DNA of 64,000 bases from Eledone cirrhosa. Lineage: Eukaryota. Below the pieces are notes generated by a model. It ran no database searches. It worked only from the letters and a program-made list of their open reading frames with translations, and was not told the origin of the DNA. Location of the stretch: assembly GCA_964016885.1 (NCBI GenBank), contig OZ024740.1, positions 380,742,001 through 380,806,000 of the forward strand. Reading direction: 5' to 3'. A program made the translations under genes and the position numbers. Positions 6,975 through 61,502 of this stretch are shown one piece after another; the stretch's first letter is position 1; each line of letters begins with the position of its first letter.

Positions 6975-7305
6975 AAACATATGATTCCAGTTCCTCAGTG
7001 AAATAACAACCCAACAAGGTACTGGGCATATCAGAGTATTGATAAAGTTAAACACCTCAACAACATGTGTACTCATCTCTTCCACACTAATTCGGACTGC
7101 CTGAAGAGGTCACAGCCAATGATGACTGTCACCGAAATATATATAGCAGTAATAAACGAAGCCAAATTTTAAAAAATTGTAAACATTTGACTTATTTATT
7201 TTATTTTACATTACTCCGGAGTAACCAAACCAACCTGCGCACCTCGTTGAGTGCTCCAATCTGCATACTGAGGTGTTGGTATACAACCAACATATACTCA
7301 AAATT
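6975..7305 (+). mobile_element. Short HHR-bearing insertion in (TA)n (family C, PLE terminal fragment or non-autonomous element)
   Basis: Flanked by long (TA)n both sides; about 200 bp near-identical to 9437-9640; contains HHR. Confidence 0.75.
7096..7150 (+). ncRNA. Type I minimal hammerhead ribozyme
   Basis: actgc CTGAAGA ggtcacagcca..tgactgtcacc GAAA tatataTA gcagt: stem I actgc/gcagt, palindromic short stem III, AUA site. Confidence 0.85.
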
Positions 7306-7955
7306 TATATATATATATATATATATATATATATATATATATATATATATATATATATACACATACATATATTCATATATATATTCGTATATATATATTC
7401 GTATATATATATATATATTTATATATATATATATATATATATATATATATATATATATATATATATATATATATATATATATATATATATATATATATAT
7501 ATATATATATATATATATATATATATATATACATACATACATATAAGTCCTGTAGAAGGCTTTTTAATATTAAATATATATATATGTATGTGTATTAATA
7601 TTAAATATATGTATATGTATGTGTGTGTGTGTATATATATAAAATTTAAGAAGAGCAGAACAATTGTTCTGCTCTTCTTAATTTTTATAGTTCTGGTATC
7701 TCGAATTAGTACCATTGAACACCAATTATATTAAAGACACACTATATATCTCTATGGGTACTTAGTACATAGAGAGATATTTACCTCATTTTATATATAT
7801 ATATATGTGGGGGAGGGGGTAGCAATAATGGAATAAAATCATTTCCTTTAATTAATGATGTGTGGCGCTCTGCAAGAAGATATAAAATAAAAAACGAAAA
7901 ACACAAAATGAACTTTCTGAAGATCCTGAATATATACATTTCTTCTGTCATTTGG

Positions 7956-8053
7956 CACACACACACACACACACACACACACACACACACACACACACAC
8001 ACACACACACACACACACACACACACACACACACACACACACACACACACACA
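7956..8053. repeat. (CA)n microsatellite
   Basis: Perfect CA run of about 100 bp. Confidence 0.95.
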
Positions 8054-9264
8054 CTCACTCTTCCATTGACGACATATAAAACACACAGCGGAGAAATAAC
8101 ATGAATGACATGCACACCTATAAAATGCACTCCATCTGCACACACATAACATTACCAATGATACTCCCAGACTCTCCACGTCAGCCCCCATCTCCACACA
8201 CCGGATTATTTGCCAGCCCTCCTCACCCATCCTGATAAAACTGTTTTATTACTCCAACCTTCCAGCCTCTTCTTTCTCCGAACTTTGCCCGTTCTTGATG
8301 AAGGACTAACATACGATATGTTGAAAAATTTGTTTCCAATTTTCAAGAAGTGTTAAAATGTTATTCTATCTCTGTGCTCGTTTTGTTTATCTTGAAATAT
8401 ATATATATATATATATATATATATATATATATATATATATATATATATATATATATATGTATGTGTGTGTGTGTGTGTGTGTGTGTGTGTGTGTGTGTGT
8501 GTGTGTGTGTGTGTGTGTGTGCGTGTGCGTGCGTGTGTGCGTGTGTGCGTGTGTGTACGTGTGTGTGTATGTGCTTGAATGAAAAAGGATATATATATAT
8601 ATATATATATATATATATATATATATATATACAGACATACAAACACAGACATGCCCAAATCTAAATACACACGCACACACAATCGTACGCACTCATCTAC
8701 ATAGAAACAACAGAAGAAAGCTCCCTGTGCGCACACACAGACACACTCACACGTACGCACATGCACAAAAAGAAAAACAAAGATCTCATAGGTATACACA
8801 CACACCTGTGTGCACACACACACCAATATAACACTTTTTCACACACACACAGATTGAAGCAATGCACACCTACCATTTTCATCCCTTCGGCACTCACACA
8901 CACATAACCATACTCATGACACACTTGGACCCTCCACACGGCCCCTACAACCAAATGCCGGACCTCTCGTTACCACCCCCAACCTACAAATCTCTTCCTA
9001 ACGCCCTTTTCCTAAATTCTTTTCCTAACTTTCATAAACCACTTTCATGTAGCTACCTGTTCTCTCATAATCCGAACTTTCCTGATGAAGTACTTCCGTC
9101 CGAAACATAGAACCCTCCTTCAAGTGTAACCTAATATGACTTTGTAATTTTGTATCCCTGTGTTTATTTTATTTCTTTTATCAACTATATATATATACAA
9201 ATGGAACCTGAACCGATAAGGTTTGGTTTATCGGGTATGTCACTATTTATAAAAACAAATTTTG

Positions 9265-9328
9265 TATTTTATCTGATGAGAGCGTACCAAAGTATTTTTG
9301 GTACCCTTGAAATATATATAATAAAATA
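9265..9328 (+). ncRNA. Type I minimal hammerhead ribozyme (family D)
   Basis: tattttat CTGATGA gagcgtaccaaa..tttggtaccctt GAAA tatataTA ataaaata; homolog at 38391. Confidence 0.85.
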
Positions 9329-9418
9329 AATATGATTTTATAAATCTAGTTTCTATTTATTAATATCATTGATATATATATATATATATATATATATATA
9401 TATATATATATATATATA

Positions 9419-58386: not shown

Positions 58387-59118
58387 AACTTAACGATGGC
58401 ATGAGTTGTTGATGTCGACGTTTTAATTAAAAATAATTAGATATTTTCGGCATAGAATTTTATACACTTTTTCAATTCAAAAGGAATGGACAAATATTCA
58501 ACTAACTTGATAAGAATTTAAAGCCTTTCATGCATATACTACATACGTTGTGGATAAAAGTAGGGGTGACACACGCTGGTTCATTCAGGGGTAGGTTTTT
58601 GTACAAATTCGTATATTTACATCAACCCCGGTCGGCCATAAGTGTCATCATTAGTTTCCATAAGTGACAAGGCAAGATCTTTAGAGGCCACATATTTTCC
58701 GGATTGGAACGGGATCTTGAAGCCTGTTCCAAACTGTTTTCCTCTTCAAAATTTAAAAAAAATTTTAAATGGCTGGATTAAATTTTGAGGAGGAGGGGTC
58801 ACAGATGTTAGCTTGTCTACCATCCATACTTCAACACGTAATGGAAGAAGCAAAGCTAGCAAGCCTAACTTTGCCAATCCTTTTTCTATGTCTACAGACA
58901 ACAACAACAAAACCAGTGACAATAACGACAATGATAATTAGAATCTGCGAATCCTTTTTCTGTGGTTACAGAACGTAGTCTAAGCAAAGACAAGAACAAC
59001 CATATCAGTAACAACTCTCTTTAGCACCGAAAGACCCACAGAACTTGCATATTTCCATTCAATAAACAACTTAGAAAATCACTTAAAATATCCTTAAAGA
59101 AAGGAAAGAAGTGGTCAG

Positions 59119-59193
59119 TGGCCGCTATATAGAATCGAACTCCGTACCTCTCAAATTCCGACTGAGCGCTCTGTACCTTTGAGCTAAACGACC
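59119..59193 (-). pseudogene. tRNA-like sequence (pseudogene or SINE head)
   Basis: Minus ggtcgtt/agcggcc acceptor, tagctcaaaggt A-box, ctcag-tcggaat-ttgag anticodon arm, gttcgatt; T arm and U33 defective. Confidence 0.55.
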
Positions 59194-59302
59194 CATGACA
59201 ACGGTTGGAGATAATAAAATAGAAAGTCTGGCGGAACTTCCTCTTCTTTTGATTGCGTACATTTCTCCAGCGAAATGCAGTTGTATTTTCATTGAGGTAG
59301 TA

Positions 59303-60042
59303 CAGTGTTTCCCACTTGTGGGCGCTGTTCTGTTGAAAGGGGGCGCTGGGAGGTTTTATTTCATGGGGGAGGATGGGGGAGGGGGGAATATACTCAAATT
59401 TCTTTCAAATTTTCAAAGTTAAAAAAACACTTTCTCACTTTGGCACCAGCAAGCGAATTCCTGGCACTAGGTGTAACTAGTGTTGCTAAAGTGAAACCCT
59501 CAAAACAAAAAGAAAAAAGAAAAAAAAAAACAAATGAATGGTGACAGACGACGAAAAGAAAACATTTGTGTGCAAATATAGAATGGTGGTCAGAATTTTC
59601 AATGAAACTGGCTTTTGGGAGTGGCTGATATGTATGTGTGTGTATGTATATGATTGCATGTATGTGAGTGTGTTGCTGTTTTGAATTCCTTTCTGCGATT
59701 GAACTTAAATTGACCCCTGGCGATTAAAGGCCTCGCCACACATGCGGGCACACACATTTGTTTTAGATTTTGTACCCATTTGAACTGCAGCCATTAATCA
59801 GATAACATAGTATTTATTATGTTCCGAAATTTAAATTTGTTTTAATTATAAAATCACACCTCAGCTAAAAACACTTTTTGGGGGGCTTTGGAAAATTAAG
59901 ACAATATTAAAATTACTTTTGTAGTAAGATGAATTCAGTATCTTATTTGAAATTTAATTGAACGGGGGGGGGGGGGGGGCGTTAACAAAAAAGATTGCGC
60001 CCAAAGGGGGTACTGGCTGAAAAAAAAGATTGGGAAACACTG
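59303..60042. mobile_element. hAT (Charlie-like) MITE
   Basis: 12-bp TIR cagtgtttccca/tgggaaacactg; 8-bp TSD aggtagta/aggtacta. Confidence 0.8.
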
Positions 60043-61280
60043 AGGTACTATGACCACTAAATATTATTTTATATCTCATACCTTCTCTCATAAGACATTT
60101 CTTGAATGCAAGAAAAATATAATGATAAATAAATAATATTAAAGACATTTGAATGGACAAGCCTATTTTTCGTTATTTTTTTTTTTTTTTTTAGACATCT
60201 TCTGCTCAATCATTTAAGGATATTTAGGTGTAAATATAACCCAGAGGATTTTATGAAACGTATTTGTTAACCAACCGATCTGAATTTCCATCGAAAGAAA
60301 AAAAAAAAAAAAGATTCTACAGGTCACTAAATTTCTGAAAATGTTTCAAATCAGAAACGAGTCGTACGAAATAGCATGATATTTTAGCAACATAATTCTA
60401 CATGAAATTCTATAAATACGATTTCATAGAAGCGATAACACAAAGCAGTCCATTTAAAATACTGAGCGAAAAAATCGACCAGCAGACAATAATGTAAAAA
60501 GAATATATAGAAATACAAACAACGTCTGAATATAACTCAACCGTCGAACGATTTGATTTGGAAATTGGAGTAAAGCCGGCTTCCCTTCACAATTGGAGCC
60601 GCTTACCATTCCCTCGAGTGTGGAAGTGGTAAGCGCCCTGCGGGAATATCCCTCTTCCTATCTTCCTATTCGAGGGACGTAAATCTCTAATCTATGCTGT
60701 GACGTGGCTCGTTCTCTGCATCAAACTGTGTCGCTTTCCTCGCAAACCATAACAAGAGCATCCGCAATGTAGGGGGGGGGGGGAGATAACTAAATACCAG
60801 GGTTTGACCAACTACTTCCTTTTCGTACCGATCGCTGTCGAGATCTCTGGTGTCAGTAGTCTCTGCACTCTCATTTACTCTGCAAATCAGAAAGACGGCA
60901 GACCGCCCGAGGAATGTGCCCCAAAAGCAGAGTGGCTATTACAGTAGGTGCCGCTAACCATTTTCCTTGGCAATGCTTTCACCATTCTTTTTATGGGACA
61001 CGACCGAACCAGACTGGGGTGTAGAGCCTGTCTCTCCTCCCGCTATCTCTTTCTTTCGTTGCTTAATTCTCTTTTTCTTTTTTCCTTTTCTCTTCGTTTT
61101 GTTTCATTTGAATATTAGTACTTTTCAATTGTAAATATTAAATATATAAATATATATATGTATACATAGACATATATAAATGCATATATATATAAATACA
61201 CCCCCATACACACCCAAACACACACACACACACACACACACACACATATATATATATATATATATATATATATATATATA

Positions 61281-61502
61281 TTTATTAAAATAACAGATTA
61301 AAGTTTAAGCAAAGAATCGCTGCTTTCACCCTTAACGGGATCTTCTGAAGATCCCGTTAAGGATGAAAGCAGCGATTCTTTGCTTAAACTTTAATCTGTT
61401 ATTTTAATAAATATTTGCTCTACGGTTCTTATATATTTGATATATATTTATCCTTATCGAGCCCTCTTTGGATTTTAGTCTTCAAATTTATTATTATTAC
61501 TA
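61281..61502. mobile_element. PLE-B terminal fragment, near-perfect palindrome plus tail
   Basis: Centre tcttc-t-gaaga at 61346; right arm carries 90-bp tail. Confidence 0.88.

Follow-up and report, generated by a model that had tools for sequence, protein, structure and literature searches.

Long and short ends of inverted Penelope-like insertions in Eledone cirrhosa and a duplicated stem motif in Hydra-clade leaders

Head-to-head insertions of Penelope-like elements (PLEs) and related hammerhead families in a stretch of Eledone cirrhosa DNA combine one long with one short end in 13 of 14 cases. In the family PLE-B and in Hydra-clade relatives the end sites are fixed, and they have a sequence basis in a duplicated motif. 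On balance we favor, by a modest degree, the interpretation that Hydra-clade PLEs and their non-coding derivatives, with ends just before either motif copy downstream of the hammerhead, insert by twin priming on one RNA with one reverse transcriptase (RT) per motif. The stretch analysed, hereafter the window, comprises 64,000 nt of the forward strand (assembly GCA_964016885.1, contig OZ024740.1, positions 380,742,001-380,806,000), and the loci examined lie between 6,975 and 61,502. Pairing was counted over 14 head-to-head insertions in the window only, and arm polarity and overlap over 13.

A first-pass annotation of this DNA had proposed that insertions of unrelated hammerhead families consist of two divergent arms, one with a long and one with a short end. 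The pairing was found in 13 of the 14 head-to-head insertions, the exception at 27093 being either staggered or flush. If each arm chose its end independently, staggered pairs would make up at most half; the probability of 13 in 14 is then about 0.001, and that of seven in seven for PLE-B at most 0.008. Surely flush pairs number 0/14, which favors twin priming. The offset between the two ends is 69-137 nt in the window, where (TA)n flanks hide target-site duplications. The strict pairing rests on these 13 of 14 cases and on one complete pair in the relative L045. Other parts of the proposal did not survive. Single long-end arms occur in PLE-B (30392-31433) and family C (6975-7305), so that two arms are not universal; within the window no partner arm was recognised at 9198, 23134, 30078, 38315, 42701, 42777, 46311 or 57130, and inverted tail tips looked for in families D, E, K, N and O were not demonstrable. 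Nor are the families unrelated, as the endonuclease regions of PLE-A and PLE-B are 43% identical and families C/E, F/M, H/J and I/L pair up.

In each of the seven inverted PLE-B insertions a long end is paired with a short one, just as the annotation had it; the short end is on the left in five and the long end in two. The long end is the identical base in 8/8 copies, and the short ends fall within about 6 nt of each other. Three of the short-left/long-right insertions are joined at the hammerhead: at 23314..23532 both arms stop at its 5' edge, at 29447..29635 the long arm starts at the predicted cut and the junction shows 5 nt of stem I microhomology, and at 61282..61500 the junction lies in an imperfect palindrome of the hammerhead core. 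The insertion at 31548..32207 is long-left/short-right. Two further insertions carry a tail-only long arm that halts at the short site. The one at 27616..29418 consists of a 1.7-kb short-end arm, which carries an ORF fragment on the reverse strand (28600-29328), and a long arm at 29330-29418; the one at 52761..52932 has its long arm at 52761-52849 and its short arm on the right. Halting at the short site in 2/7 PLE-B insertions (P about 0.007), and in the relative L025, speaks for twin priming. The arms of the short-left/long-right insertion at 37423..37838 have private variants in common, with mismatches at 7/139 positions between arms versus 15-16/139 between the long arm and other copies. 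Private variants are common to both arms in 3/3 informative pairs, again in favor of twin priming. They would be expected just as much, however, if two RNAs had come from a single source locus. The single arm at 30392..31433 (reverse strand) has a long end only; its tail (30392-30478) contains motif copy 1, matched by the motif model R1 at 30423-30487 (19.9 bits), and its hammerhead, with a CAGAAGA core, lies at about 30502-30553.

Reads placed on 30382-30960 (runs including X1, X4 and X22) confirm the PLE-B short end outside the window. At the short site 30478 these reads show their best-supported loose end, (TA)n (2324/19726 and 2417/19041 reads), represented by 124 contigs in X1 and 1 in X4. 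Long arms stop at the short site in 3 of the 11 opposite-strand read joints listed. Two joints count against the pairing scheme: one at 30502/30503 in X22, with 49 letters on its shorter side, would place both arms in the tail and is either a long/long pair or a library fold-back, and in another the long arm probably extends 10 nt beyond its partner. Peaks of read begins and ends at 30404, 30707-30710, 30850 and 30904 were rejected as element ends, since all lie at AATT, and were taken as library cuts. The 811/825 reads that leave the tail at 30479 carry one sequence (agreement 0.92), the first 16 letters of which are absent from the window, and were counted as one amplified event and not as many.

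The PLE-A insertion is composed of an inverted 5'-truncated arm (9668..11154, reverse strand), a 99.4% inverted match to 15254-16752, and a main arm (11164..23054, forward strand) with a truncated and a full-length copy in tandem. The tandem unit measures about 6.44 kb and runs through a long 3' region, 11164-16615 agreeing with 17600-23057 at 99.4%. The left arm has the long end, at 9668 (16749-16752 equivalent), and the main arm the short end, at 23054 (16612-16615 equivalent), which bears out the annotated offset of 137 nt; both ends adjoin (TA)n. The pseudo-LTR contains a type I hammerhead motif (16409..16559, forward strand; core at 16417) with a long stem II and a palindromic stem III; it was read from the sequence, with predicted activity and a predicted cut at 16551/16552. 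Sequence and RNAfold point to two motif copies on the forward strand downstream of it. Candidate copy 1, the variant GACTC...GAGTT at 16619..16701, begins 3-6 nt past the short end and was not detected by R1. Candidate copy 2, GCTC...GAGCTCT with a long loop at 16758..16878, begins 5-8 nt past the long end and ends about 27 nt before the ATG, its 3' part being matched by R1 at 16832-16882 (10.5 bits). The intact ORF (16905..19346, forward strand) encodes 813 aa, assigned by sequence motifs and fold as an RT with a C-terminal GIY-YIG-type endonuclease. The top nine Foldseek matches of the protein model are telomerase RTs; a Pfam search of both the PLE-A and PLE-B proteins gave no match, and no solved-structure relative was found by sequence. 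The RWK motif is represented by R37 W38 (RWR), DKT (D115 K116 T117) stands in place of DKG, and the linker has CxCx5C (C673, C675, C681) and no CCHH. The endonuclease motif VYKC..YIG, read by eye, is conserved, and CxxC and CxH surround a conserved E and N (C771, C774, E777, N790, C799, H801). Judged from its ORF, protein motifs, hammerhead motif and (TA)n target, PLE-A appears to be a Hydra-clade element with an endonuclease (EN+); its unit exceeds the size of 'generally' less than 3 kb given for the clade, which we do not take as excluding membership.

Staggered ends recur in smaller families. Family C at 9420..9647 joins an 18-nt inverted long-end tip, correctly noted before, to a short-end arm; the tip is the same as the long end of the copy at 6975. 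That copy (6975..7305, forward strand) is a single arm with a long end, and a motif variant, ACTC...GAGTGCT, begins at 7213, 4 nt past the short site. In family H (33649..33922) a long left end with an 81-nt tail and the ACTC...GAGT variant faces a short right end with a full hammerhead motif, so the stagger stands with an offset of 81 and not about 75 nt. Two tips with (TA)n flanks, at 33933 and 42701, match this tail (0/1000 shuffles as good), and we therefore regard it as element-derived. A retrozyme-like 467-bp tandem hammerhead array (38516..42157) is folded head-to-head at 40541 in short-left/long-right order; its offset, put at about 70 nt, measures 69. The array gives 7 HH9 matches at 38.6 bits, under the gathering score of 52, and the Hydra motif is not evident in it. 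Family F (26433..27011) has a 97-nt short arm on the left and a right arm that continues for 117 nt beyond the short end, where about 55 nt had been estimated. The extension passes a GTTC...GAAC motif variant and a second hairpin, and it is the long arm that goes further in the 5' direction. A relative of F, family M, was absent from the earlier list; it has a 26-nt short arm, and its long arm continues for about 102 nt beyond the short end (7638..7791; R1 match at 7678-7727, 9.6 bits). The ends of families F and M lie after the second hairpin, not before it, which tells against the general scheme. One other reading took the 26432 extension for an adjacent element on the opposite strand (1/1000 shuffles, following a screen of about 650 comparisons), and another took 7638-7689 for a flush palindrome; both were dropped given a motif variant directly past the short end in each. 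The family G insertion (27094..27523) does carry a 31-nt extension on the right, close to the annotated 30 nt. The motif is missing from this extension, which may belong to the host flank, and the insertion, a single copy, could thus be flush-ended.

The sequence basis of the end sites emerged in the relatives. Exact GAGYACT occurs twice within the last 160 nt 5' of the ATG in 31/47 Hydra-clade family representatives, against at most 1 in shuffles, and the copies of the motif (GCTC...GAGCACT) in relatives' leaders are spaced 53-82 nt. GCTC stands 5-30 nt upstream in 66/72 GAGYACT sites (shuffle mean 4.1, maximum 11), leaving loops of 8-19 nt, which lengthen to about 110 nt in PLE-A; an AT-rich sequence precedes the motif, and the GTTC/GAAC and ACTC/GAGT variants preserve pairing. 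As the stem is 4 bp and nearly invariant (2/60 compensatory), and inner pairs do not exceed those in shuffles, the evidence for pairing in RNA falls short of proof. A strong fold common to the whole tail was rejected, with z below -2 in 1/5 tails. Model R1, built solely from Hydra-clade relatives and searched against the window at E up to 10, detects the motif in 8/8 PLE-B tails among 17 matches. Each element end in the relatives was scored against the leader of its own locus; 11 of the 16 scorable ends lie 2-7 nt before a motif (3 at copy 1, 8 at copy 2), and the other five (-12, -27, +32, -65, -86) are off the motif sites and count against the scheme. In an earlier scoring, about 10 of 23 ends had been compared with diverged references and were set aside. 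Published Hydra consensuses also have the motif, Hydra-1_Ajap starting 2 nt before copy 1 and holding both copies. Since the motif is duplicated and ends lie just before its copies, the tail can be read as a single unit of the repeated signal, and the offset as the motif spacing. A duplicated leader stem motif at Penelope tail boundaries was not found in the published literature searched.

In the mechanism we propose, each motif copy (GCTC-loop-GAGC-ACT), as RNA, would be bound by one protein, and each nicked (TA)n strand would prime cDNA at the AU-rich stretch immediately preceding the motif, to which it would pair over 1-4 nt. One site on one RNA is not usable by two primers, and pairs would thus be long plus short. 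The rear enzyme, at the long site, might halt on meeting the front primer, so that its arm would comprise the tail alone, or displace the front cDNA and continue; the 3' ends of the two cDNAs would join via microhomology to give the head-to-head junction, and priming by one strand only would give a single arm. The annotated claim that both target strands prime at fixed sites agrees with our data as regards both strands and the sites in PLE-B and in Hydra-clade relatives, while we infer the use of a single RNA. In a fuller and more tentative version, which we hold to be possible but short of probable, twin priming is programmed: a duplicated RNA stem signal would load two RT-endonuclease subunits on one RNA and both cut strands would prime at once, the signal spacing accounting for the tail, the inverted arm and the family offset, and non-coding derivatives would be mobile with a hammerhead and two signals alone.

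A single cDNA started at the long site might instead snap back and copy itself as far as the short site, much as self-priming has been proposed for Adineta Penelope (PMC3846280). Palindromic or equal-limit junctions at 23313, 61281, 7638 and 27093, and the variants common to both arms, would suit such a fold-back, but it demands that the short arm lie inside the long arm. The short-end arm extends further 5' in 9/13 insertions, by up to 10 kb, with ties in 3; this is an outcome that fold-back of a single cDNA cannot give, and it thereby supports priming by both strands. No sequence is common to both arms at 27615, 52760 and 9419, and the center of the 61281 junction would require a one-base loop. 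Fold-back is thus contradicted for most copies; it could survive solely for the equal-limit cases, and as a general explanation we give it almost no credence. The polarity has its own exceptions, as the long arm extends further 5' in 26432 and in L045, and it is statistically weak (P 0.04 pooled, 0.11 by within-insertion swap). The rule that no long arm extends beyond its short arm, at first scored 11/11, failed with these two cases and is kept as a tendency.

The same two cases, together with the one possible long/long read joint, would sit well with priming of the target strands on two RNAs, or on two tandem leaders of one transcript, where the motifs still set the starts and an asymmetric complex favors long plus short. 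A variant of this kind has been proposed for L1 (PMC2837659), and it would yield the observed overlap of arms, present in 10/13 insertions and reaching 1.5 kb, without strand displacement. Yet it requires an extra rule to avoid flush pairs and offers no reason for long arms to halt at the short site in PLE-B, L025 and the read joints; we consider it unlikely, though deserving of some weight. The motifs could also act as endonuclease sites in DNA, a double-stranded head-to-head intermediate being cut ahead of copy 1 in one arm and ahead of copy 2 in the opposite arm. Craig 2021 (PMC8557442) ascribed the tail to endonuclease resolution, recognition by the endonuclease required the D. virilis tail (cited in PMC11167929), and a nearly invariant motif preceded by AT-rich sequence is what such a site might look like. 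Loops that vary from 8-19 nt in relatives to about 110 nt in PLE-A, and variants that preserve pairing, argue against recognition as DNA; the ends of PAc, the Poseidon element of Anolis carolinensis, match RT start sites measured on RNA (PMC11167929), and tail-only arms are left unexplained. Resolution at the DNA level therefore seems improbable to us.

The proposed twin priming at a duplicated signal builds on features already described for PLEs. Canonical EN+ PLE insertions have a partial tandem, an inverted 5'-truncated arm and a tail that is often one-ended (PMC8557442; Arkhipova et al. 2013, PMC3846280), and 13/14 inverted insertions here have such an arm and a one-ended tail. Hydra-clade elements are likewise described with a hammerhead in the pseudo-LTR, (TA)n targets and RWK/DKT/CxCx5C motifs (PMC8557442). 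The tails seen here are two to four times the canonical 30-40 bp, and the PLE-A unit is 6.4 kb versus under 3 kb. The main text of PMC8557442 mentions no hairpin or stem-loop; it accounts for the tail through resolution by the endonuclease or through self-priming. The closest biochemical parallel is PAc: on AT-rich DNA in vitro its protein nicks each of the two strands and extends it (Frangieh et al. 2024, PMC11167929). PAc too has AT-rich targets, and synthesis starts at two sites within the RNA, past the hammerhead, the tail being the sequence between them; RNA 3' of the start sites is required. Its sites, however, lie inside the ORF, 30-40 nt apart, whereas those described here are located in the 5' leader, with spacings of 53-82 nt among relatives and of 69-137 nt within the window. 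In the available text of that paper no duplicated signal is named and neither inverted arms nor the way they pair are discussed, and the PAc start sites show no strand difference, which is at odds with twin-site pairing. PMC8557442 treats as an open question how the inverted arms and the one-sided tail arise, and PMC11167929 refers it to 'additional steps'; with a duplicated cis signal marking both ends, the question becomes directly testable. If our reading is correct, the motif would be the first defined protein-loading signal for this telomerase-related retroelement clade, would provide a rule for placing the boundaries of Hydra elements and of their derivatives in annotation, and would represent a natural case of both target strands primed from one template.

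The 467-bp array resembles non-LTR retrozymes in that it is non-coding and its tandem units each contain a type I hammerhead (PMC7229834), and metazoan retrozyme repeats have been proposed as Penelope-derived (Cervera and de la Pena 2020, PMC7229834; bioRxiv 10.64898/2026.07.22.740005). Its 467-nt unit exceeds the quoted 170-400 nt, and it has staggered head-to-head arms of the Penelope type; the word 'inverted' is absent from the available text of PMC7229834 and occurs in that of the preprint only in a reference title. As in the twin priming of L1, both nicked strands prime and two inverted fragments are joined internally (Meyer et al. 2010, PMC2837659). L1 primes on poly(A) and at an internal site that varies, and an internal deletion usually results (PMC2837659), whereas here both sites are internal and fixed by the motif, the arms usually overlap, and there is no poly(A) end. 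The insertions work like twin priming, but in a form that is not that of L1.

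Thirteen of the 14 inverted insertions in the window, each composed of two head-to-head arms, are staggered, pairing a long with a short 3' end downstream of the hammerhead, where independent site choice would produce this in at most half (P about 0.001). As the first-pass annotation had proposed, every inverted PLE-B insertion has one end of each kind (7/7; P at most 0.008 by itself against independent choice); the long end falls on the identical base in 8/8 copies, the eighth (30392) being a lone long arm. The offset, or length of the tail between the two ends, is 137 nt in PLE-A, exactly as first described, 69 nt in the 467-bp array (about 70 nt claimed), 81 nt in the insertion at 33652, which is staggered as claimed but not by the about 75 nt given, and about 95 nt in that at 9419; a tandem copy or a relative verifies each of these extensions. 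The insertion at 26432 is staggered by 117 nt rather than the proposed 55 nt or so, and its relative at 7638 by about 102 nt. The one remaining insertion, 27093, could be either staggered or flush. The general rule of long plus short ends is borne out for these inverted insertions, but at least 10 further (TA)n-flanked pieces have one arm only. GGTATA(TA)n units are reiterated at the 5' junction of a single-arm copy (31422-31475) and extra TAAA units are present at three short ends (27616, 29447 and 52930), which suggests repeated slippage while priming. Mini-insertions composed solely of an element tip lie between (TA)n tracts at 32392-32410 (19 nt that match the 30078-family end exactly) and 42701-42758 (58 nt from a tail related to family H).

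The PLE-A ORF at 16905-19346 is intact (813 aa); a Pfam search of its product returned no match, and the top nine fold matches of its predicted structure are telomerase RTs. The protein has RWR, DKT, CxCx5C, CxxC and CxH, corresponding to the RWK-type, DKT, CxCx5C, CxxC and CxH features by which PMC8557442 (section 11) characterises the Hydra clade. Between the RT thumb and the endonuclease, residues 477-579 form an N/K/T-rich, low-complexity, low-confidence insert resembling the N-rich inserts reported for Adineta Penelope. The tandem copies of PLE-A are 99.4% identical, and the element is therefore young; a PLE-B ORF fragment has 43% identity to the PLE-A protein across 230 aa. The predicted hammerheads were identified by reading the sequence, Rfam matching only the 467-bp array with a score under the gathering threshold; in the predicted PLE-B core CAGAAGA replaces CUGANGA. 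Unconnected to the Penelope ends, a 760-aa open frame at 44054-46336 (-), whose 5' end abuts a (TA)n tract, encodes a non-LTR-type RT and a PHD finger. A repeat roughly 190 bp long, whose dispersed copies are 80-97% alike and lack (TA)n flanks, is found at 5422-5520, 5810-5990, 33344-33520, 50012-50200, 54106-54220, 56576-56770, 58177-58388 and 61920-62115.

Besides the window, the material comprised four public read runs aligned to one PLE-B stretch (30382-30960) and metagenome loci, of which we used the best 77 of 410 relatives; the contigs were assembled from short reads, partly of related samples, and their (TA)n joins may be assembly errors. The leader of these related loci, between hammerhead and ATG, carries GCTC-loop-GAGCACT twice. 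An anchored leader of at least 120 nt was available in 55 of the 77, yielding 47 family representatives; the last 160 nt contain exact GAGYACT twice in 31, once in 11 and not at all in five, against twice in at most 1 among shuffled leaders, with the two copies 53-82 nt apart. GCTC lies 5-30 nt upstream at 66 of 72 GAGYACT sites (shuffle mean 4.1). One locus (L075) has three motif copies and another (L063) one. After exclusion of loci without an ATG anchor (11), without the motif (5), without their own 3' leader copy (32), ending at the contig end (10) or running into the ORF (3), 16 of the 77 had an own copy ending within the contig. The element ends 2-7 nt before a motif in 11 of these 16 (three before copy 1, eight before copy 2), against a rough chance of 18 of 200 positions; the remaining five end at -12, -27, +32, -65 and -86. 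Inverted arms in L025, L039, L045 and L066 terminate at these two motif-adjacent sites, L045 being a complete long and short pair. Four full-length relatives (L004, L048, L049 and L051) start at (TA)n directly before a motif copy; 5' limits may also cluster at motifs, or assembly joins may occur there.

A covariance model, R1, was built from 60 locus motifs after removal of 9 mis-anchored rows from 69. Searched at E up to 10, the window gave 17 matches, with E about 0.01 in the top three only, including the tails of all eight PLE-B copies and of 7638, and a portion of PLE-A copy 2. By eye, variants lie about 0-6 nt after the short ends of PLE-A and of families C, F and H, with PLE-A copy 2 located after the long end; sought in the same way in the 467 array and 27093, the motif was not evident. 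Its stem has 4 bp, the next pair being unpaired in 59/60 and a compensatory change present in only 2/60, in a set whose extraction favoured pairing. The variable loops, together with the GTTC/GAAC and ACTC/GAGT variants, point towards an RNA stem, and the motif is a putative protein-binding site. A non-Penelope repeat at 32970-33019 (+), presumably SINE-like, carries an exact GCTC...GAGCACT (R1 score 13.4 bits), by chance or as a borrowed signal.

In the PLE-B read runs, whose reads are too short for a genome-wide pairing count, (TA)n at the short site (30478) was the best-supported loose end among the 20 of 1208 rows listed; it occurs in 2324/19726 and 2417/19041 of the aligned reads of two reduced-representation runs, in 124 contigs of a third run and in one from the run of a different organism. 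Reads overrunning the ends of the stretch numbered 1200 and 1361, and depth was about 1100-1200 on the long-end side and about 18 on the opposite side; a library cut at 30404 masks the long end in many reads. Among the 15 joints listed of 93, 11 change strand; of these, six have an arm ending at 30482 or earlier, three an arm ending no more than 4 nt from the short site, and in two the partner's length places its end at the short site. The more distant of the two arm limits lies at 30537-30552, in the hammerhead 5' half, in seven of the 11, as it does in four window copies. The joint 30502/30503, where the shorter side of a read spans 49 letters, counts against strict pairing and reflects either both arms entering the tail or library fold-back. 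Arm limits at the predicted hammerhead cut (30506/30507) are found at 29515-29526 in the window and in joints 30501/30552, 30502/30503 and 30475/30506, as would be expected had cleaved RNA served as some of the templates; these junctions could equally arise from stem I microhomology. Separately, 811 and 825 reads, together with 27 contigs, run out of the PLE-B tail at the short site (30479) into a single sequence that terminates with a hairpin and a CTAG, which we take to resemble a Helitron 3' end; these probably represent a single tail-only arm amplified within another element. Reads joining at 30429 (949 and 1081) differ in the distal tail past motif copy 1 and are a PLE-B subfamily with a different long end.

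Most copies cannot be explained by fold-back of one cDNA, because in 9/13 the short-end arm extends further 5' than its partner and in three pairs it shares no sequence with the long arm; as an explanation overall, fold-back is very improbable. Element RNA or DNA has therefore served as template for both arms; taken with in vitro data on PAc, the Anolis carolinensis Poseidon element, this makes priming by both nicked strands the simplest route. Ends with a known downstream template have 1-4 nt in common with the (TA)n flank. In the reading to which we lean slightly, both nicked target strands would prime cDNA on one RNA (twin priming). Three observations speak for one RNA: no pair is flush with certainty, some long arms (insertions 27615 and 52760, L025 and read joints) end at the short site, and the arms share variants in 3/3 informative pairs. 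This reading is weakened by the long arm passing the short arm in 26432 and L045, by a polarity test that is marginal only (P 0.04 and 0.11) and by the strand displacement needed in the 10 of 13 cases whose arms overlap. We consider priming on two RNAs unlikely, and cutting at the DNA level less likely again.

Staggered ends are thus real and mostly a known Penelope feature, and the underlying idea of two-site, both-strand priming put forward in the first-pass annotation is largely already published: with PAc in vitro, both strands are nicked and extended from two internal start sites, the tail being the sequence between them (Frangieh 2024, PMC11167929). What appears new, and is testable, is that the tail constitutes a single unit of a leader signal which is duplicated and marks both ends. 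Literature searches found no account of a duplicated leader motif, and the main text of the Hydra-clade paper (PMC8557442) mentions no hairpin; the motif is nevertheless present in published Hydra consensuses, one of which begins 2 nt before copy 1. In the PAc template printed in the Methods of PMC11167929, a GGCC..GAAAG..ACAAC unit can be read by eye at two places about 35-40 nt apart, both within ORF nt 1-120; its second copy spans the reported start region 111-118, and the pair is possibly an analogous duplication outside the Hydra clade.
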